This document shows, piece after piece, positions 12,135 through 29,548 of a stretch of DNA of 38,867 nucleotides. A model generated the notes under the pieces. The model did not search any database. It was given only the letters and a program-made list of their open reading frames with translations, and had not been told where the DNA came from. The stretch's first letter is position 1; every line of letters begins with the position of its first letter. This DNA comes from a virus (lineage: Duplodnaviria > Heunggongvirae > Uroviricota > Caudoviricetes): the IMG/VR virus record IMGVR_UViG_2526164634_000034, positions 1 through 38,867 of that record. The stretch is one strand, 5' to 3'. The translations under genes and the position numbers were made by a program.

Positions 12135-12965
12135 TGATTACTCCTGGTTAACTCGGCATTAAGTCTGCCGGTGACTGTGGTGGTGACTGGAATTGCTGTT
12201 GTTGTGACTCGGCGACATCTTTCAGAAGGCGTATTGCCTCCATCACTGCTTTGTCATCGATGTTTCTGGCTTGAGCCAGTTTATAGACAGTGTTTGCCTG
12301 ACTCTCCATCGCATCCTGCTGGGCAGTAAATGCTTTGATTTGAGTTTGAGCAGTTTCGTTAGTTGCTTTTTGCGCTTCTGCCTGCGCTGCTACCATTTGC
12401 GCCTGAGCGAGAACCATTTCAGGATTTGGCTGGCTTTGTGCTGCCATTTGCGCCTGTTGAACAATCTGCTGCTCTTTCTCATTGCGTGGTTTTGCAATAC
12501 CAGATATCAGCAGTTGGTTTCGGTTGTACTCTTTGAAGTCATCAAGGCCTTCGCCATCGATATTGTCCAGAATAATACCCTGAATTGCCGGGCGCATTGG
12601 GTCTGTTGGAAGCATAGAGCTAAGGACATTTGTCAGTACAGAAACCGTTGCATCACGTCGTGCTGTGTAGCTTGGTCCAACATCAACCGTCACATCGTAT
12701 CGACCGACAGAAAGGTCATTTAACGCAACAACAGCCCCTGTTTGCCTGTCAACAACCTGTGCGCTCAGGACAGCGATATCATCACTTCCATCTTCGTTAA
12801 CGATGCGCACTTCACGTTCTGAACCGTACACTTCACGCGCCATTGACAGCCATACTTCACCAGCGCGTTTAAGACTTTTCGCCATATTATCCAGATAGAT
12901 AAACGAAGCCATATCTGCTCTGTTCATCAAGTTGTTAACCGTTTCCTGAGCAATATTACTTGGCA

Positions 12966-14294
12966 CTGAGAGATCCCCTCATAATTTCCCCAAAACGTAA
13001 CCATGTGTGAATAGATTTTGAGTAAGCAGGGTTGCAGCCACGAGTGAGTCTTCCCTTGTTATTGTGTAGCCAGAATGCCGCAAAACTTCCATGCCTAAGC
13101 GAACTGTTGAGAGTACGTTTCGATTTCTGACTGTGTTAGCCTGGAAGTGCTTGTCCCAACCTTGTTTCTGAGCATGAACGCCCGCAAGCCAACATGTTAG
13201 TTGAAGCATCAGGGCGATTAGCAGCATGATATCAAAACGCTCTGAGCTGCTCGTTCGGCTATGGCGTAGGCCTAGTCCGTAGGCAGGACTTTTCAAGTCT
13301 CGGAAGGTTTCTTCAATCTGCATTCGCTTCGAATAGATATTAACAAGTTGTTTGGGTGTTCGAATTTCAACAGGTAAGTTAGTTGCTAGAATCCATGGCT
13401 CCTTTGCCGACGCTGAGTAGATTTTAGGTGACGGGTGGTGACAATGAGTCCGTGTCGAGCGCTGATTTTTTCGGCCTTTAGAGCGAGATTTATACAATAG
13501 AATTTGGCATGAGATTGGATTGCTTTTAGTCAGCCTCTTATAGCCTAAAGTCTTTGAGTGACTAGATGACATATCATGTAAGTTGCTGATAGGTTTCCAG
13601 TTTTCCGCTCCTAGGTCTGCATATTGTACTTTTCCTCTTACTCGACTTAACCAGTACCAACCCAGCTTCTCAACGGATTTATACCATGGCACTTTAAAGC
13701 CAGCATCACTGACAATGAGCGGTGTGGTGTTACTCGGTAGAATGCTCGCAAGGTCGGCTAGAAATTGGTCATGAGCTTTCTTTGAACATTGCTCTGAAAG
13801 CGGGAACGCTTTCTCATAAAGAGTAACAGAACGACCGTGTAGTGCGACTGAAGCTCGCAATACCATAAGCCGTTTTTGCTCACGGATATCAGACCAGTCA
13901 ACAAGTACAATGGGCATCGTATTGCCCGAACAGATAAAGCTAGCATGCCAACGGTATACAGCGAGTCGCTCTTTGTGGAGGTGACGATTACCTAACAATC
14001 GGTCGATTCGTTTGATGTTATGTTTTGTTCTCGCTTTGGTTGGCAGGTTACGGCCAAGTTCGGTAAGAGTGAGAGTTTTACAGTCAAGTAAGGCGTGGCA
14101 AGCCAACGTTAAGCTGTTGAGTCGTTTTAAGTGTAATTCGGGGCAGAATTGGTAAAGAGAGTCGTGTAAAATATCGAGTTCGCACATTTTGTTGTCTGAT
14201 TATTGATTTTTGGCGAAACCATTTGATCATATGACAAGATGTGTATCTACCTTAACTTAATGATTTTGATAAAAATCATTAGGGGATTCATCAG
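12966..14294 (-). mobile_element. IS10 (1329 bp) with 9-bp target-site duplication TACTTGGCA
   Basis: Terminal sequences CTGAGAGATCCCCTCATAATTTCCCC (12966..) and ...AATCATTAGGGGATTCATCAG (..14294); identical 9-bp direct repeats at 12957..12965 and 14295..14303. Confidence 0.95.
12979..14187 (-). CDS. IS10 transposase
   Basis: 402 aa, MCELDILHDSLYQFCPELHLKRLNSLTLACHALLDCK..., matching the recalled IS10 (Tn10) transposase. Confidence 0.95.
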   Translation of the reverse strand: MCELDILHDSLYQFCPELHLKRLNSLTLACHALLDCKTLTLTELGRNLPTKARTKHNIKRIDRLLGNRHLHKERLAVYRWHASFICSGNTMPIVLVDWSDIREQKRLMVLRASVALHGRSVTLYEKAFPLSEQCSKKAHDQFLADLASILPSNTTPLIVSDAGFKVPWYKSVEKLGWYWLSRVRGKVQYADLGAENWKPISNLHDMSSSHSKTLGYKRLTKSNPISCQILLYKSRSKGRKNQRSTRTHCHHPSPKIYSASAKEPWILATNLPVEIRTPKQLVNIYSKRMQIEETFRDLKSPAYGLGLRHSRTSSSERFDIMLLIALMLQLTCWLAGVHAQKQGWDKHFQANTVRNRNVLSTVRLGMEVLRHSGYTITREDSLVAATLLTQNLFTHGYVLGKL

Positions 14295-15614
14295 TACTTG
14301 GCATCTGCTGCATGGCCTGACTGCCGCCTGTAACCTCCTGAATATCAGCACTGGTTTGCTGTAGTAATGCAGCCAATGCCTGATTCATAACCGCAGGCTG
14401 TGTATATCCTGCCGGGGTAGCTCCAGCGATAATGTTGCCAGATTTATCTCTCACTTCGCGCAACGGCAAGAACGCTGGGCGTTTCTTGTTGCGAGCCTCC
14501 CAGTGCTTCTCAAGTCCACGAATTTGCTCCATGCCAACTATAGGGATCTGACCGGGGTCTTGCGCTGCAGTATCAGCCAGCATTGAAACCTGAAGGTTGT
14601 ACAAACGCTGTGGATCCATTGCTTTTGCAATGTGCCCTTCGACACGCTCAATGTCATCAATGAACCAGCGTTTTCCATAAACCGGGATGAGGGGGATATG
14701 CTCACCAGGAATACGTCGAGGTTTCTCAAGGAAACCATCACCATCCACTACGGATACATACACACGACGGCGCTTCACTGAGCGCCTTGCCACTTCCTGA
14801 AATCCAGCTATTGCCAGTTCATCTTCAATATCTTCAACCTGATCACTGTCGTATGTTGCAATCTCTCCAGTGATTGGATGTCGATAACTGATGACGTCAA
14901 CAGACTCTTTACGAACTTCGTAATACTTCGCTATGTAAATAACATCTGCACCAAACCAGTTATATTCCCAACTGGTCATAGACGTTACATCCAGAGAAGT
15001 GGGAGGTTTCTTTCCGTATTCAGCCTCATATTTTTCAGGTGACAACGAATACATACAGAACGCCCACAACGCGTCAGATTTGTCGTACTTCTTAGCGTCA
15101 GGGTCAAACCACACAGAGCGCGACGGGTCGTATATTGGTTCAATAGCAATACGCTGACGATCGTCCATGGGGTCGTATTCATTGACCAGCATCGACGCCA
15201 AACGGAAGCAACCGAAACCACCAGTAGCAGCGTCGTCAAATGCATTATCGCAAGCCTCACCGCCATCAGTTTCTTCGTAGTCAGCACGGAACAGACCATT
15301 TAATTTATTGGCTAACTCTTCGCTTGCCTCTCTGTCACCAGGACGAAACTTAACGGTTATTCTGTTATTGCGGTATTCTGCAATGATGCGGTTAAGTTCA
15401 GTTGCTACCTTATTGATTTCAAACTTAGGATACTTCTCGAACTGCTCATCAAGCTTAGTTCCAGCCGCCGTTGCTCCTTCCCATTGACCTCCGGGGACAC
15501 GAGCAAACCTCGTAGCTTCAATGCACTTTTCGCGCACTTCCTTCTGTGGAGAATAGGCGCGGTCAAACCTGAGCATGATCCGCTCATGTTTTTTCTCTAA
15601 TGTCTCTGCCATGT

Positions 15615-17027
15615 TTACCAACCGGAGGATGAGGGAACGTATATTTCTGTTTCTTCGCGGACCAATGCCGGGAAATGCATACACATCATCAGCGCATCAG
15701 CCAGGTTAGGAGATGGAATACCGAGCTTCTGCTTCATTTCGACCTTAGTCATAAGCTCCAGCTTCCCGTTATTATTGAATTTGCGCTGAATCTGAGTCAG
15801 TTCTGCAAACAGCTTCTCCAGCATCTTCTCGCCTATCGCTTCTTTGTCGAAACTCAGCATGTCGTCGGGGTCTGCATACTCACCGTGAACAACCGCCCGA
15901 TATGTCAGATACAGCCTGTCAGCCAGCGCATAATAGAATTGCGCTCGCTTATTGCGGAATACATCGCCAATAGTGCGAACGTTGTCGCCCTGTACTACTT
16001 CATCAGCCCATGCTCCGGCCTGATACGGCGCATCTTCATCGAATGGCGATTCGCTGCCCTTGAACATCGTGGCGGTGATTTTCTTGCCGGAGAACGCTTC
16101 CGTTGTCTGTCTGCGTAGCCCGGCACCAACACCATCACCATCCCACAGGTAGTGGTCAGCGCCGTCTTCAATCGCCAGAGAAGTAGCCCAGTCAGCACCC
16201 TCGTTGATGTCCATCAGCAGACCTTCGGCAATGCGTTTAACTACCGAACCGTGGCGCGATGCGTAACCTTTAGCATCTGGCCCTGTATCTGACGGGTCAT
16301 GTGCAGAAACAACAGCGCCTTTCGCTTTCCATCCGAGTTTCTTGTGCGCATCGGTTGCGGCTTCAAGCCATTCACGTTTGATGATTGCCATATCACTTGC
16401 GCTTACCGGCTCACCAAGCCAGATGTGACGATACAGTGTCGGGTTTCTGCGTTTACACTCTTCCATCTCCAGACGGAGAACTTCAGGAAAGTGCGGGTTG
16501 TCGGTGTAGTTCACCGTCAGCAGACAAATATCATCAGGAGGGTTTACGACGAATCGCTGATAGGTATCGTCGAGGATGTTTTTCGGGTTAAAGCTCACCC
16601 ATATTTCGGAAAACGGCTTGCGGATTGTTGGGATCAGGATATCCCACGATTCCTTTGTTACCGCTTCCGCTTCTTCCACCCAGCAGATATCAATGCCTTC
16701 GAGCGATTTAATCTTCGTCGGGTTGTTTTTGATGCCGTAGAACATGAACTCAGCATTCGTTCCGAGATGACGAATCATGGAACGCTGAATTTCAAACTCA
16801 GCCGAATACCCTTCACGCTCGATGGTATCTTCAAGCAACCGGATTACCGAATCGCTGATACTGTTTTGCAGTTCACGAGCGCAGAGTATGCGCACAGGCT
16901 GCCGACGCGCCGCTTCAACAAGCAGCCTCGCAATTGCCCATGACTTACCGCTACCTCGACCGCCTTTGGCGACTTTGTAGCGATGCGCCTCAATGAACGG
17001 TTCAAAGATAGGATTAATCGAGGTCAT
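15615..17027 (-). CDS. Terminase large subunit
   Basis: 470 aa (Sf6 gp2 size) with Walker A-like KVAKGGRGSGKS near the N-terminus; stop overlaps the portal start. Confidence 0.9.
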   Translation of the reverse strand: MTSINPIFEPFIEAHRYKVAKGGRGSGKSWAIARLLVEAARRQPVRILCARELQNSISDSVIRLLEDTIEREGYSAEFEIQRSMIRHLGTNAEFMFYGIKNNPTKIKSLEGIDICWVEEAEAVTKESWDILIPTIRKPFSEIWVSFNPKNILDDTYQRFVVNPPDDICLLTVNYTDNPHFPEVLRLEMEECKRRNPTLYRHIWLGEPVSASDMAIIKREWLEAATDAHKKLGWKAKGAVVSAHDPSDTGPDAKGYASRHGSVVKRIAEGLLMDINEGADWATSLAIEDGADHYLWDGDGVGAGLRRQTTEAFSGKKITATMFKGSESPFDEDAPYQAGAWADEVVQGDNVRTIGDVFRNKRAQFYYALADRLYLTYRAVVHGEYADPDDMLSFDKEAIGEKMLEKLFAELTQIQRKFNNNGKLELMTKVEMKQKLGIPSPNLADALMMCMHFPALVREETEIYVPSSSGW

Positions 17028-23587: not shown

Positions 23588-24003
23588 TCATACTCTCGCC
23601 AGGAGTCATCACTCCACCGCACGTTGCGCTCTGAGCCGAACCAGAACATGATTTCGATAAGCTCAGTCATGCTGGCCTTCCGCATTTTGCTGGTACGCAC
23701 GCCAAGCATGACAACGCCACCGTCGATACCAGGCACACTTCGTTGCTCCAGTTTTTTGGTCTTAAGCCACAGGGCAGTGAACAGGTCTTTCCAGTCTTCC
23801 GGCGCCAGCCGTTGACCATGCCATAGCACCTGACGCGAAACATCGTTCAGCATCGGCCACATACGGTCATTCTGCGCTTTGCTGCGCTTGGGTTCTTTAA
23901 CGTGGACTTCGTGGGGTGACTTGTCGTCGATGGGTAGTGAGAGAATGGCGTCTATGGCGTTATTTCTGATTGCTTCGTTGCGAAGCAGAAAGGTTTGCTT
24001 CAT
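23557..24003 (-). CDS. ninB: NinB recombination protein
   Basis: Start set to the internal MKQTFLLRNEAIRNNAIDAILSLP...; ...NDVSRQVLWHG...VRWSDD resembles recalled lambda NinB (146 aa). Confidence 0.8.
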   Translation of the reverse strand: MKQTFLLRNEAIRNNAIDAILSLPIDDKSPHEVHVKEPKRSKAQNDRMWPMLNDVSRQVLWHGQRLAPEDWKDLFTALWLKTKKLEQRSVPGIDGGVVMLGVRTSKMRKASMTELIEIMFWFGSERNVRWSDDSWREYEWSQRKGRAA

Positions 24004-24196
24004 CTCCTGCTCTCCGGTTCCATTTTTCAGCCGCCGCAGCAACTGATGGTGCCCATGCCCCCCTGGCTTCACAGAGGTCACATTCTGCATAGCCCCACAC
24101 ATCAATATTTATTCCGGCCTCAACCCACAGACGAGCATTACCGCCGCAAAACGGACATTCTTTTAGCTTTGGCTGGGTTAATGATAGGTCGCTCAT
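23960..24196 (-). CDS. Lar-like restriction alleviation protein (putative)
   Basis: 78 aa from an internal ATG with AAGGAG 6 nt upstream; KECPFCGG ... C..C Cys pattern typical of Lar-family proteins; overlaps the NinB start by 44 nt. Confidence 0.4.
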   Translation of the reverse strand: MSDLSLTQPKLKECPFCGGNARLWVEAGINIDVWGYAECDLCEARGAWAPSVAAAAEKWNRRAGDEANLSASQRSNQK

Positions 24197-24206
24197 GCTC
24201 ACTCCT

Positions 24207-24422
24207 TCACTTAAAATCCAGACTCCGGATAATTCTGTTGCGCTGAAACTCATTGTTGAGTTTGAACAACCGTCGAAGAACACGGTCACGCGGATAGCGT
24301 CGTGCGGCAGGTGAATGCTCATACAACTCATCAAGCGGCAAACTGGACGATGAACGATACCGATACCAACGCACCAACTCTTCACGAAAATTAGCCCTGA
24401 CAAGCTCAGCTATCGTACTCAT
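24207..24422 (-). CDS. Hypothetical 71-aa protein
   Basis: ORF with GGAGG upstream, in the position lambda uses for ren; no similarity to Ren seen. Confidence 0.45.
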   Translation of the reverse strand: MSTIAELVRANFREELVRWYRYRSSSSLPLDELYEHSPAARRYPRDRVLRRLFKLNNEFQRNRIIRSLDFK

Positions 24423-24448
24423 TTCTTAAAGCCTCCAATTACTCTTCC

Positions 24449-24511
24449 TCAAATAAAAAGGCCTGCGATTACCAGCAGGCCTGTTACAAGCTCAGTGATG
24501 TAGATGGTCAT
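24449..24511 (-). CDS. Tiny 20-aa hydrophobic peptide (MTIYITELVTGLLVIAGLFI), speculative
   Basis: ATG overlaps the helicase stop (TGATG) with AGGAGG about 7 nt upstream; not in the ORF track because of its size. Confidence 0.25.
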   Translation of the reverse strand: MTIYITELVTGLLVIAGLFI

Positions 24512-25947
24512 CAGAATCCTCCTTTCTTCTTGGACTGCGGTTCCTCACGTTCACGGCGGCGCATTTCAGCAGACTGTTGGTCTGTGTCATAAATAGCGCC
24601 ATTTGCCTGAATGCAATACACCGTGCCGGTATTGCCATGACGATTGAGACGAAGGATTAGTTCGGTTTCACCAGGTGGAACACTGTCATCAAAAGCACCT
24701 TCACGATGGATCCCCACCCAATAATCGCAATCCTGTTCAATCTGTCCTGTATCGCGCGAGTCACTTGGTAATGGGCGTTTATTGGTTCGGCTTTCCAATG
24801 CGCGGTTAAGCTGTGTCAGAAGCACAACAACGCAATCAAGCTCTTTGGCAAGGTTCTTCAGTCCTTTGGTGATCATGCCGTAAGCAAGGTCGTTGCGATC
24901 GGCCTTCTCAGCGGTCATTAGTGTCAGGTAATCGACCAGAATCATGCCAACACATCCTTTTTCTCGCTTGATTCGACGGCTTTCACTGACGATTTGAGCC
25001 AGAGATAATCCCGGCGTGTCGTCGATGTAAAGCAGGTCGATTTCACTCAAGCGATTTGCTGTTTCGATCGCCCTGTTGAAGTCACCATCGTAATCACCCT
25101 GATAGCCGTCATCAGCGTCATTTGTCGCTGGAAGGTAAAAAATATTTGGGTTAACACCTGACTTCTGCCCTACCAGTTTTTCCAGTATCTGGTCACCGGG
25201 CATTTCAAGGCTGAACATCAGAGCGGGCTTTTTCTCATGCACTGCGCAGTTGATTGCCATCTGGCTGTATAGCGTCGTTTTCCCCATCTTAGGGCGAGCG
25301 CCAATGACAAACAGAGAGCCTTTCACCAGACCTTTCGGTGACAGCATCCTGTCCAGCGATGGGATCCCTGTGCTCATTCCTCGTTGTTCGCCTGACGGGT
25401 CAAATCGCTTCTCAAGGTCGCTAACCCAGTCTTCCATGACCTCACCAAATGAACGAAGGCCGCGACGCGATCCGGTTTTTGCATGGTCTGTCAGTTGCGT
25501 GAAAATCGCCTGAATAGCTTCGTACTTCTGCGTTGCAGTCATTCCGTTGCGGGAATAGAGCAATTCCGTCGCTTCAGTCATGCGGTTGATGGCGTAGCGT
25601 TCCATTGCGGTTTCACGAACCTGCATTGCATAGGCAACGATGTTTGCTGCGCTTGGCGTGTTCTTTGCGATCTCAGAGATATAAGCAAAACCGCCAACAG
25701 ACGCCGTTAACGATTTACGCTCCAGTTCATCGAAAAGCGTCAGGCCATCTACTGGCTTTTGCTCCCGGTGCATTCTGGTTATTTCTTCGAAAAGGATTTT
25801 GTGTGGTCGGCTGTAAAATGAATCGGGCTTCAGCATCGCCAGAACTTTCTGGACGCGCTCACTGCTGTCATCATCCAGAAGCAATCCACCAATCACCGCC
25901 TGCTCTGCCTCGATGCTATGGGGCGGCGCATAAAAATTATCGGTCAT
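24511..25947 (-). CDS. Replicative DNA helicase (DnaB family, P22 gene 12-like)
   Basis: Walker A (GARPKMGKTT) and DnaB-like N-terminal domain; start set to the ATG (MTDNFYAPPHSIEAEQAVIGG) rather than the upstream GTG. Confidence 0.85.
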   Translation of the reverse strand: MTDNFYAPPHSIEAEQAVIGGLLLDDDSSERVQKVLAMLKPDSFYSRPHKILFEEITRMHREQKPVDGLTLFDELERKSLTASVGGFAYISEIAKNTPSAANIVAYAMQVRETAMERYAINRMTEATELLYSRNGMTATQKYEAIQAIFTQLTDHAKTGSRRGLRSFGEVMEDWVSDLEKRFDPSGEQRGMSTGIPSLDRMLSPKGLVKGSLFVIGARPKMGKTTLYSQMAINCAVHEKKPALMFSLEMPGDQILEKLVGQKSGVNPNIFYLPATNDADDGYQGDYDGDFNRAIETANRLSEIDLLYIDDTPGLSLAQIVSESRRIKREKGCVGMILVDYLTLMTAEKADRNDLAYGMITKGLKNLAKELDCVVVLLTQLNRALESRTNKRPLPSDSRDTGQIEQDCDYWVGIHREGAFDDSVPPGETELILRLNRHGNTGTVYCIQANGAIYDTDQQSAEMRRREREEPQSKKKGGF

Positions 25948-26827
25948 CGTGTTCACCCTCACGAACTTTCAGGTAGGTATTATCGTTAAGCAGGAAATCA
26001 AATCCCTTTTTGTGCCAGACGGTTCCGCGCTGATGGTTTGGGCGCTCTTCGAACATCCATCGGCAATTTTCGCCTACGTAGCTCAAATAATTTCTCCAGT
26101 CCTGCATCGTGAAACCATGCCCGTCAAGCTGTCGGGTTATCACTCCGGCTTTGCGCCAGAACGTTCGGATCTGGTTTTTACGCTTGTCATTCAGTGCGCG
26201 GATTCTTGGCGCTTCAGGAAGGATTTCGTGGTAAGCATCGACAACATCCTGACAGCTAACGGAAGGTTTTTTCTTGTCAGACTTTTTGTCTGCTGTGGCA
26301 CTCTCTAATACGTCAGTATTAGAGATATTATTTATATTATTGTTTATGGACAACCGTTGGACAACCGTTGGACAATCTCCGCTGAGAGCCGCGCCATTAC
26401 TGGTGTTTGCGTTGGACAACCGTTGGACAACCGTTGGACAATTTTTTGCCTGAAAATCGTCATATTTAACGATTGTAAACAGGCTAAATTTCTTCCCCAT
26501 CGAGCAAATATTAAGCATACCTTTCGACTCAAAAGTCCGTAATAAGCTCCGAACTTTGTTGTCTGGGATGAATGTTTCTCTGACCAGCGACGGGCGTCCA
26601 GTTATCATCTGACCGCGATCAACAGTTATCGGACCGATATCCGTATTGACGACAGTAGATTCGTGATTAGCCTTGAGGATTAAGTGAAGCCAAAGATGTA
26701 CTGCCTGAGAGTCCTTATAGAGCCTGCTGTCCATAAACTGGCGGTGTATAGAGACATACCCCATACTGGATGCCTCCTGATGTTGTACAGGGTTATGCCT
26801 GTAATCAGCTAACTTAACGACGCCCAT
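25937..26827 (-). CDS. Replication initiator (lambda O / P22 gene 18-like) containing the origin
   Basis: 296 aa; its central region (CPTVVQRLS repeated) is encoded by the iterons; lies immediately upstream of the helicase gene. Confidence 0.8.
   Translation of the reverse strand: MGVVKLADYRHNPVQHQEASSMGYVSIHRQFMDSRLYKDSQAVHLWLHLILKANHESTVVNTDIGPITVDRGQMITGRPSLVRETFIPDNKVRSLLRTFESKGMLNICSMGKKFSLFTIVKYDDFQAKNCPTVVQRLSNANTSNGAALSGDCPTVVQRLSINNNINNISNTDVLESATADKKSDKKKPSVSCQDVVDAYHEILPEAPRIRALNDKRKNQIRTFWRKAGVITRQLDGHGFTMQDWRNYLSYVGENCRWMFEERPNHQRGTVWHKKGFDFLLNDNTYLKVREGEHDDR
26346..26443. repeat. Origin-of-replication iterons with adjacent AT-rich region
   Basis: Two clusters of three 11-bp direct repeats (GGACAACCGTT x2 + GGACAATCTCC at 26348..26380; GTTGGACAACC x2 + GTTGGACAATT at 26411..26443) next to the AT-rich stretch 26310..26345. 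Confidence 0.75.
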
Positions 26828-27009: not shown

Positions 27010-27291
27010 TCAGGCCTCGAAGAATTCGCCGTTCTTCGGGGCTTTTTCTTTTGTCAGGTAATTGGCAAGCCGCTTAGTCAGCTCAGCCATTTCATCGTCT
27101 TCGATTCCGTATTCCAGAACAGCCAGCATCATGCTTACCTGCGAGAAGAAACCATTCTTCCATCGGCTTACCTGATATTCAGGAACCCCCATTGCTCGAG
27201 CGAATGTCTTCTGCCCCATCAGTGCCAGTTTGTTCAGCAAGGCTGACTCGATGCGAGCCGCTTTCTTGCTTTTAGTTGCAATAGTACCCAT
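27010..27291 (-). CDS. cII: CII-like transcriptional activator
   Basis: 93 aa; ...ARIESALLNKLALMG...VSRWK...SMMLAVLEYGIEDDEMAELTK resembles recalled lambda CII. Confidence 0.8.
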   Translation of the reverse strand: MGTIATKSKKAARIESALLNKLALMGQKTFARAMGVPEYQVSRWKNGFFSQVSMMLAVLEYGIEDDEMAELTKRLANYLTKEKAPKNGEFFEA

Positions 27292-27367: not shown

Positions 27368-27399
27368 GCCCTTTTTCAGGGCGGGGATGTGTAAGAGCG
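27368..27399 (-). promoter_or_regulatory. nutR (boxA + boxB)
   Basis: Minus strand reads CGCTCTTAC (boxA) then GCCCTGAAAAAGGGC (boxB), matching recalled lambda nutR, between cro and cII. Confidence 0.8.
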
Positions 27400-27746: not shown

Positions 27747-28433
27747 ATGGATAAATACGAACAAAGACGACTAAGGCTGATAGAGATAAGAGACCGATTC
27801 TGTAATGGAAAGGCCTCAGAGTTGGCTCGTCGAATAGAAAGGGAACCATCATACGTTTCCAGAATGCTGTATCCGGAAGGAAAAAGCGGAAAAAAACGCA
27901 TTGCTGACGATATGATGGAGCTAATTGAAAAATCTTTTAATCTCCCACGCGGATGGATGGACATGCTTGCAGATGGTAAAGCTGGAGCTACGGACCATCT
28001 TGAGTTTGCGGGTAACGTTCGTGCGGGTTTTGTTCCGGTAATTGGTGAAGCCGTTTTGGGAGTTGATGGCTCAGTGGATATGATTGAATTCAGATCCGGT
28101 TGGTTAAGCATCTACAGCGGCGATAAAGATGCTTACGGTCTGAAGGTTAAGGGTGACAGCATGTGGCCAAGGATTCAGTCAGGAGAATATGTTGTTATTG
28201 AACCAAATACGCCAGTACATCCAGGTGATGAAGTCTTTGTAAGGACCAAAGACGGTCACAACATGATAAAGATCATGAACAAAACAAGAGACGGTGATTA
28301 TCAGTTTAGTAGCATAAACAGTGATCACCGCCCAATCACTCTTCCTGTTGAAGAAGTTGATAAAATGCATTTTGTTTCAGCTATTGTGAAACACACCAGG
28401 TACGTAGACCAGGACGATCTGCCAAAAGTTTGA
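27747..28433 (+). CDS. cI: CI repressor (HTH plus LexA-like S24 autoprotease domain)
   Basis: 228 aa; C-terminal domain with catalytic Ser (GDSMWP) and downstream Lys; divergent from cro. Confidence 0.9.
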   Translation: MDKYEQRRLRLIEIRDRFCNGKASELARRIEREPSYVSRMLYPEGKSGKKRIADDMMELIEKSFNLPRGWMDMLADGKAGATDHLEFAGNVRAGFVPVIGEAVLGVDGSVDMIEFRSGWLSIYSGDKDAYGLKVKGDSMWPRIQSGEYVVIEPNTPVHPGDEVFVRTKDGHNMIKIMNKTRDGDYQFSSINSDHRPITLPVEEVDKMHFVSAIVKHTRYVDQDDLPKV

Positions 28434-28922: not shown

Positions 28923-28953
28923 TGCTCTTAAAAATTAAGCCCTGAAGAAGGGC
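28923..28953 (+). promoter_or_regulatory. nutL (boxA + boxB)
   Basis: TGCTCTTAA...GCCCTGAAGAAGGGC; matches recalled lambda nutL with one boxA substitution (T for C). Confidence 0.85.
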
Positions 28954-29221: not shown

Positions 29222-29548
29222 ATGGATGCACAAACACGCCGCCGCGAACGTCGCGCAGAGAAACAGGCTCAATGGAAAGCAGCAAATCCCCTGTTGGTTG
29301 GGGTAAGCGCAAAACCAGTTAACCGCCCTATTCTCTCGCTGAATCGCAAACCGAAATCACGAGTAGAAAGCGCACTGAATCCGATAGACCTTACGGTGCT
29401 GGCTGAATACCACGAACAGATTGAAAACAACCTGCAACGTATTGAGCGCAAGAATCAGCGCACATGGTACAGCAAACCACGCAGTGAAATGGGTGTGACT
29501 TGTGTTGGTCGCCAGAAAATGAAATTAGGCAGCAAACCACTTATTTGA
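29222..29548 (+). CDS. N: Antiterminator N
   Basis: 108 aa, MDAQTRRRERRAEKQAQWKAANPLLVGVSAKPVNRPILSLNRK... with arginine-rich motif; near-identical to recalled lambda N in its N-terminal two thirds. Confidence 0.95.
   Translation: MDAQTRRRERRAEKQAQWKAANPLLVGVSAKPVNRPILSLNRKPKSRVESALNPIDLTVLAEYHEQIENNLQRIERKNQRTWYSKPRSEMGVTCVGRQKMKLGSKPLI

Follow-up and report, generated by a model that had tools for sequence, protein, structure and literature searches.

The short hydrophobic reading frame behind a prophage helicase gene is a truncated copy of the lambdoid ninA/tR2 element

The short reading frame that begins on the stop codon of the DnaB-like helicase gene in this prophage (20 codons plus TGA on the minus strand, 24511..24449, encoding MTIYITELVTGLLVIAGLFI) does not represent a novel peptide gene but the ninA frame of lambdoid phages, an element that is already known, and its presence in the window (the whole 38,867-nt stretch of DNA analyzed in this study) is real but ordinary. 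The first-pass annotation had interpreted the frame as a possible membrane peptide, of the kind represented by type I toxins or regulators of membrane proteins, translationally coupled to the helicase gene. Part of this interpretation stands, since the frame is a conserved and named small ORF (ninA). There is no backing here for a stand-alone gene for a membrane peptide, a type I toxin or a regulator of membrane proteins. The hydrophobic core of the peptide is the tR2 terminator hairpin and its U-tract read in frame, a feature inside the ORF that had been overlooked. It is likely that this 63-nt frame, the prophage's copy of the ninA/tR2 element, functions mainly as a terminator, a spacer and a ribosome relay.

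The ORF is present where it was first described, and it is placed for translational coupling to the upstream replication gene. Its ATG (24511..24509) shares one base (A) with the helicase stop codon TGA (24513..24511) in the overlap TGATG, and a Shine-Dalgarno sequence AGGAGG (24523..24518) is found within the last helicase codons, 6 nt before the ATG where approximately 7 nt had been reported. The helicase gene (24511..25962, minus strand) encodes a DnaB-like replicative helicase of 483 aa (phrog_19, E=3e-137). The peptide had been called entirely hydrophobic, which slightly overstates its character; it is mostly hydrophobic (GRAVY 2.02), but T2, Y4, T6, E7 and T10 are polar, with GRAVY values of 1.2 over codons 1-10 and 2.84 over codons 11-20. 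The caution previously attached to the ORF, that very short frames arise by chance, was justified: the surrounding 5 kb is overlapped by 82 ORFs that are 20 aa or longer, so a length of 20 codons is not in itself beyond chance. What exceeds chance is the conservation of the ninA block, which had been proposed earlier as one of the checks on the ORF. A BLAST search with the 81-nt block recovered 421 phage records at 90% identity or higher, from phages of Escherichia, Salmonella and Shigella and one Klebsiella phage, and the block, starting exactly at the ATG, was present in 1810 of the 5426 complete E. coli genomes, with a maximum of 5 copies in a genome and roughly 2600 copies overall. This conservation is explained at least as well by functions at the RNA and DNA levels as by a functional peptide.

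The identity of the frame as ninA is supported by the PHROG profile phrog_5907, a family without an assigned function, where residues 1-20 of the window peptide align to profile positions 1-20 of 27 (E=6e-13); no family match for the peptide was found in Pfam or NCBIfam. Knowledge of the ninA/tR2 element dates from the early 1980s, and annotations of it are widespread; the phage records describe the same block in three different styles: as 'ninA', as 'terminator tR2 / similar to phage lambda', and, in Sf6, as 'bsq6; boundary sequence'. The name ninA is used in P22 (26 aa), HK620 (27 aa), Sf6 (gene 45) and Nil2, while NCBI PGAP leaves the block unannotated in the RefSeq E. coli genomes listed. 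The ninA genes of P22, HK620, Sf6, phage 21 and Nil2 have the same start codon and the same TGATG or ATGA overlap with the upstream gene, and the window frame shares the first 20 residues of the family, including a V at position 9 that P22 and HK620 also have. In lambda, where the frame is usually unannotated, it extends from an ATG overlapping the ren stop codon (ATGA) to a TGA overlapping the ninB ATG (ATGA) and encodes MTIYITELITGLLVIAGLFIWGRGKS.

The tR2 stem-loop (AGGCCTGC / TGGTAATC / GCAGGCCT; 24482..24459, minus strand), recognized by a terminator scan, by folding and by identity to lambda, encodes peptide residues 10-18. Its stem is a perfect, GC-rich 8-bp helix, and its predicted fold (-15.7 kcal/mol, z=-3.5) was not equaled by any of 200 shuffled sequences. 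The U-tract (TTTTATTT; 24458..24451) extends the final T of the stem and encodes L-F-I; together with that final stem base it reads TTTTTATTT (24459..24451), directly after the stem. The stem-loop and U-tract are base-for-base the same as the copies in lambda, P22, HK620 and Sf6. Codons 11-20 (GLLVIAGLFI) coincide with the hairpin and U-tract, and the hydrophobicity of this stretch therefore follows from the in-frame reading of tR2, which alone accounts for the core; the core is most likely a by-product of the terminator and not a helix designed for the membrane. Of the two remaining frames through tR2, one contains a stop codon and the other is open, reading RPAGNRRPFYL. The in vivo termination efficiency of the lambda tR2 sequence is approximately 0.9 (Li et al., PMC4824070), and in the absence of N, transcription from pR that has passed tR1 'completely stops at tR2' (PMC7084815). 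The window tR2 is predicted to terminate transcription based on its identity to lambda, with the sequence after the U-tract differing between the two; the first two differences fall immediately after the U-tract (TTTGG GGG in lambda compared to TTTGA GGA in the window).

The surroundings of the element are also those of lambda tR2, which occupies the same site in the pR operon, between the replication genes and the nin genes. In the window, the early-right operon on the minus strand runs in the order cII, a 53-aa gene, an O-like initiator, the helicase, ninA/tR2, a 71-aa DUF7301 protein, a Lar-like protein, NinB, a Dam methylase, a NinE-like protein, NinG, NinI and Q, an arrangement that is canonical for lambdoid phages. 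The gene following ninA (24207..24422, minus strand) was identified by PF23975 (E=4e-26) and phrog_1785. Upstream in the same operon is a nutR boxB identical to that of lambda (GCCCTGAAAAAGGGC; 27368..27382, minus strand), with 0 such matches expected by chance, and the lambda apparatus for N/nut antitermination is completed by an exact lambda boxB at nutL (28939-28953, plus strand, by motif match) and an N-like antiterminator gene (29222..29548, plus strand; phrog_271, E=1e-26), with cI annotated at 27747-28433. The window copy thus has every sequence and positional feature of lambda tR2, namely the stem-loop, the U-tract and a location in a pR operon with N and nut. The upstream gene differs, being a DnaB-type helicase gene in the window, as in HK620 and Sf6, and ren in lambda.

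Comparison of 120 tR2-type copies with the ninA 5' block, collected from IMG/VR and reference phages, indicates which parts of the element are kept. The conserved 5' block (codons 2-10; 24483..24508, minus strand) forms the left part of a mosaic boundary sequence and is almost the same in copies that follow 8 or more unrelated upstream genes, including ren, the HK620-type helicase gene, P22 gene 12 and VT2-Sakai orf28. The left edge of homology is exactly the ATG and the right edge is a few bases past the U-tract, and the genes flanking the block on either side are unrelated and occur in many combinations. In each upstream context the preceding stop codon overlaps (ATGA, TGATG) or abuts (TAA|ATG) the ninA ATG, and all 8 contexts have a GGAG-, GAGG- or GGGG-type motif 6-10 nt before the ATG. 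On the downstream side there are at least 6 different junctions, and the ninA stop codon overlaps or abuts the next start codon in approximately 95% of the copies (ATGA, GTGA, GTGGCTGA, TAAATG). The nin region, whose genes, including ninA, are described as nonessential and are packed with ATGA overlaps (PMC8022706), is characterized in the statement of Kroger & Hobom (1982) cited there as a 'chain of interlinked genes'.

Three unrelated strong hairpins with U-tracts are found approximately 30 nt after the same 5' block. In addition to tR2, there is an HK97-type hairpin (GGGGCTATTTACACAGTAGCCCC followed by T6; -12.6 kcal/mol) in 108 IMG/VR copies (e.g., HK97 itself, positions 601-699 of the locus retrieved, and phage Gally), and a further type (CCTCCGGC-ATA-GCCGGAGG-TTTTT; -15.5 kcal/mol), designated L373, in a single contig. 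The HK97 form, which was turned up by a tblastn search of phages with a 26-aa NinA, is represented by HK97 gp56 (32 aa, MTIYITELITGAIYTVALFYWIKNEGDPDGHR), located after the HK97 helicase gene; its 5' 31 nt and first 11 residues are identical to those of the window, it has a hairpin and U-tract at the same distance, and its frame runs on to overlap the next gene. It differs in its hairpin (GGGGCTA...TAGCCCC), in its core (GAIYTVALFYW, still fairly hydrophobic) and in having an acidic tail. The L373-type hairpin reads as NILRHSRRFFR, which is basic and non-hydrophobic (GRAVY -1.05). Within the tR2 type, the commonest stem variant (GGC to GGT, 14 contigs) is synonymous and also leaves the stem paired, through a G.U wobble. 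What the slot after the 5' block retains is a terminator. A contig scan with a degenerate-loop pattern (GGCCTGC-N8-GCAGGCCTTTT) recovered unrelated terminators in many phyla and the real element in 2 of 120 loci. Copies that had appeared to contain the hairpin without the 5' part of ninA were considered as a terminator-only form and rejected, as they result from the insertion of an HNH endonuclease gene (203 aa) inside ninA, past codon 10 and ahead of the tR2 hairpin. This insertion occurs in several Stx phages and IMG/VR contigs (e.g., 12203-12922 of locus L091, and 1-660 of L249 from phage SH2026Stx1), where it makes the HNH stop codon abut the terminator hairpin and leaves a 34-aa hydrophobic fusion ORF (MTIYITELIAWLSLLMVLTVYIIKYILYANKKTN).

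The window copy is a truncated nonsense allele of ninA. It resembles the other members in its phrog_5907 match and in its TGATG with AGGAGG, arranged as in HK620 and Sf6, but its product is 20 aa, compared to the usual 24-32 aa, and it no longer ends on the start codon of the next gene. The difference arises from a TGG to TGA change (W21*; 24449..24451), accompanied by GGG to GGA, at a codon that specifies Trp in nearly all other tR2-type copies; 118 of the 120 copies run on to 24-31 aa. The normal allele with the same downstream gene continues as ...FIWGRVIGGFKK, giving a 30-aa product that ends in ...GGFKK with ATGA on the DUF7301 start codon, while the TGA in the window leaves an untranslated gap of 26 nt before the next ATG. 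W21* would break the proposed relay to DUF7301, and that gene would have to rely on its own Shine-Dalgarno sequence (GGAGG, 24432..24436, 9 nt before its ATG). The W21* allele is rare: one other copy was identified among the 119 tR2-type copies from outside the window, and in E. coli there were 3 full-length matches at 100% identity among the matches listed, with 15 of 1787 matching records in the band of 99% identity or higher. The TGA allele is found behind the helicase gene in the window and behind ren in one of these E. coli genomes, and has therefore been moved by recombination across the block.

The main function of the element is proposed to be at the RNA level, with tR2 ending pR transcripts beyond the replication genes except where N has modified RNA polymerase at nutR. 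As the window holds both N and lambda-type nut sites, nutR is where N would load in order to read through tR2. The 5' block may act as a spacer. In lambda, tR2 is almost abolished by a stop codon a few bases upstream, masking occurs only below approximately 27-30 nt, termination is maximal beyond approximately 30 bp, and at short distances the natural upstream sequence of lambda outperforms random sequence (PMC4824070). The distance from the helicase stop codon to the hairpin's first base is 28 nt in the window (24510..24483) and 25 nt in lambda, which fits a spacer role, such that a ribosome terminating on the helicase gene would not mask tR2. On transcripts antiterminated by N, the same frame would most probably use termination-reinitiation to hand ribosomes across tR2, so that they move on from the replication gene into the nin genes within that region's ATGA chain, and the 3' tail (GGGGGAGAGG) also serves, by its sequence, as the Shine-Dalgarno sequence of ninB-type downstream genes. 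In addition, this short block may be a recombination joint between mosaic modules (bsq6). With every part of the ORF having a job at the nucleic acid level, the peptide may be a by-product, and we infer that it has no function of its own. In the window, the frame would end right after the U-tract and the relay to DUF7301 would be cut, with GGAGG allowing independent initiation.

Translation of ninA itself is consistent with published work on lambda. The lambda ninA start site is reported to be active in PMC4824070, with citation of Kroger & Hobom (1982) and Liu et al. (2013), and the reporter study itself found it 'not weak'; mutating the ninA ribosome binding site or AUG restored the levels of an upstream reporter, while ninA translation lowers tR2 efficiency by only approximately 10%, and ribosomes on terminated transcripts meet no ninA stop codon (PMC4824070). 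The reporter result indicates that initiation occurs, which argues against a chance ORF that is never translated and is present only because the terminator is there. Such an explanation could draw on the abundance of 20-codon ORFs by chance, the lack of PGAP annotation in the E. coli genomes listed and the fact that one of the other two tR2 frames is also open; however, the ATG, the Shine-Dalgarno-like motif and the stop/start overlap recur behind at least 8 different genes, and the frame is open through three different hairpins, making this explanation very improbable. A less remote alternative is that the block is kept mainly as a recombination boundary sequence for module swaps among lambdoid phages, with the ORF and its overlaps being incidental. 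Exactly this block is the bsq6 of Sf6, and it shares with the bsq boundary sequences a short conserved block with non-homologous modules on both sides; the homology edges are sharp, the flanking genes are unrelated in many combinations, and the occurrence of the rare TGA allele behind both the helicase gene and ren implies exchange across the block. This explanation nevertheless leaves the presence of three different hairpin terminators in the same slot unaccounted for, along with the recurrent start/stop overlaps and upstream Shine-Dalgarno motifs in unrelated contexts. It is a possible explanation, if a doubtful one, and since it is compatible with the terminator explanation, it is not a true alternative to it.

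The remaining alternatives assign a function to the peptide. NinA could be a genuine small membrane protein acting in trans (a toxin, exclusion factor or membrane-protein regulator), with the terminator merely sharing its sequence, and the active lambda start site described in the works cited above is in its favor. In the tR2-type set, 8 of the 11 distinct variants in codons 2-10 were synonymous compared to an expected 26% (p=0.0015), and none were at the second codon position, a bias that hints at amino acid constraint and counts against the terminator, spacer and relay explanation. However, the bias was not replicated in a second, independent set consisting of the 108 HK97-type copies, which have the same 5' block and a different hairpin (2 of 9 variants synonymous). 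When the sets were pooled, 8 of 17 variants were synonymous (p=0.049) and changes at the first, second and third codon positions numbered 8:1:8 (chi-square p=0.056), these counts representing variants and not phylogenetically independent events. Because the bias of the first set is absent from the HK97-type set, peptide-level selection is not claimed here; the evidence for it is weak to marginal, leaving it unproven. Changes at the second position are nearly absent and the replacements are conservative (mostly I/V/L/M swaps, as well as T/A), which hints that such selection may act. In intact alleles, moreover, the hydrophobic stretch is followed by a basic tail (WGRGK-type), a layout shared with real single-pass micro-proteins, and the replacement hairpin of the HK97 type still reads as fairly hydrophobic; both features favor a membrane protein over the terminator-based explanation, which is further weakened by the fact that several downstream genes have their own Shine-Dalgarno sequence, so that a relay may be unneeded. 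On the other side, alleles that break the ORF are in circulation, including W21* (in the window and other genomes), E7* and a 1-nt deletion lineage of 5 copies (both within the HK97-type set) and the HNH insertion, and the L373-type peptide lacks hydrophobicity altogether. Furthermore, ninA is situated in a region that is described as nonessential and is removed by the nin5 deletion (PMC8022706, PMC3349717), it belongs to no Pfam or NCBIfam family and to a PHROG without an assigned function, and any product of terminated transcripts would be tagged for rescue because the frame has no stop codon there (PMC4824070). Taken with the lack of evidence for an antisense RNA in the scans, these findings make a membrane protein acting in trans unlikely. 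Somewhat more unlikely is a combined explanation in which NinA is a real micro-protein whose sequence is tuned to work both as a terminator and as a helix that inserts into the membrane and carries a basic tail, having a trans role at the host membrane, or in which ninA translation tunes read-through of tR2. Such a micro-protein would be made only from N-antiterminated transcripts, since terminated transcripts contain no ninA stop codon, and the W21* allele of the window would then be a natural loss-of-tail variant.

The suggestion of a type I toxin was examined separately and rejected, as the ORF has no independent transcription unit and the scans provided no evidence of an antisense RNA. The ORF sits between overlapping genes of an operon and contains the terminator of that operon. 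No Rfam match at E<=1 was found within 24000-25000, and a consensus scan of 10 kb yielded 13 promoter-like matches compared to 11.7 expected by chance. The only one of these able to read antisense through the ORF (24206-24233, plus strand) was a weak consensus match (9/12). The likeness of ninA to toxins and micro-proteins of the Hok, TisB, Ibs and Ldr types is limited to size and hydrophobicity; unlike these, ninA has no promoter of its own, forms a bridge between genes within an operon and has a sequence dictated by a terminator.

The tR2 terminator, the nin region and the ATGA gene chain belong to textbook lambda biology, and the element is present in approximately one third of complete E. 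coli genomes, and the comparative data provide only marginal evidence either way regarding the function of the NinA peptide. The case carries a caution for annotation, since a short "transmembrane-like" ORF can be an intrinsic terminator read in frame: the GC-rich palindrome gives G, A and L, and the T-run gives F, I and L, so a terminator can read as a transmembrane segment.

Several other features were observed in the course of this study. The junction between tR2 and DUF7301 was found in approximately 300 complete E. coli genomes, based on matches to at least 80% of a 67-nt query that reaches only the DUF7301 start codon. In a contig titled Pseudomonas sp. 30_B (L177, approximately 510-620), the ninA/tR2 block and the start of ninB are identical to lambda over the approximately 100 nt examined, which is likely to reflect contamination of the assembly with lambda DNA rather than a Pseudomonas prophage. 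In the window, a strong plus-strand 14-bp hairpin with a T-run (27012-27044) lies antisense to the 3' end of cII (27291..27010), at a site that we take to correspond to the terminator of the lambda oop antisense RNA. In its structural half, the window is Sf6/HK620-like (i.e., a P22-like prophage), and these structural genes are accompanied by an N-like gene and by boxB sequences at nutR and nutL that match lambda exactly, a typical lambdoid mosaic. The P22-like portal gene is split on the minus strand into an ORF matching profile positions 3-420 (15684..14257) and an ORF matching positions 414-671 (12966..12148), and between the two halves is an IS10-like insertion with an RNA-OUT (14180-14249, plus strand; Rfam, 97 bits) and a 402-aa DDE transposase ORF (14187..12979). 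Because the portal gene is split by this insertion, the prophage is probably defective.
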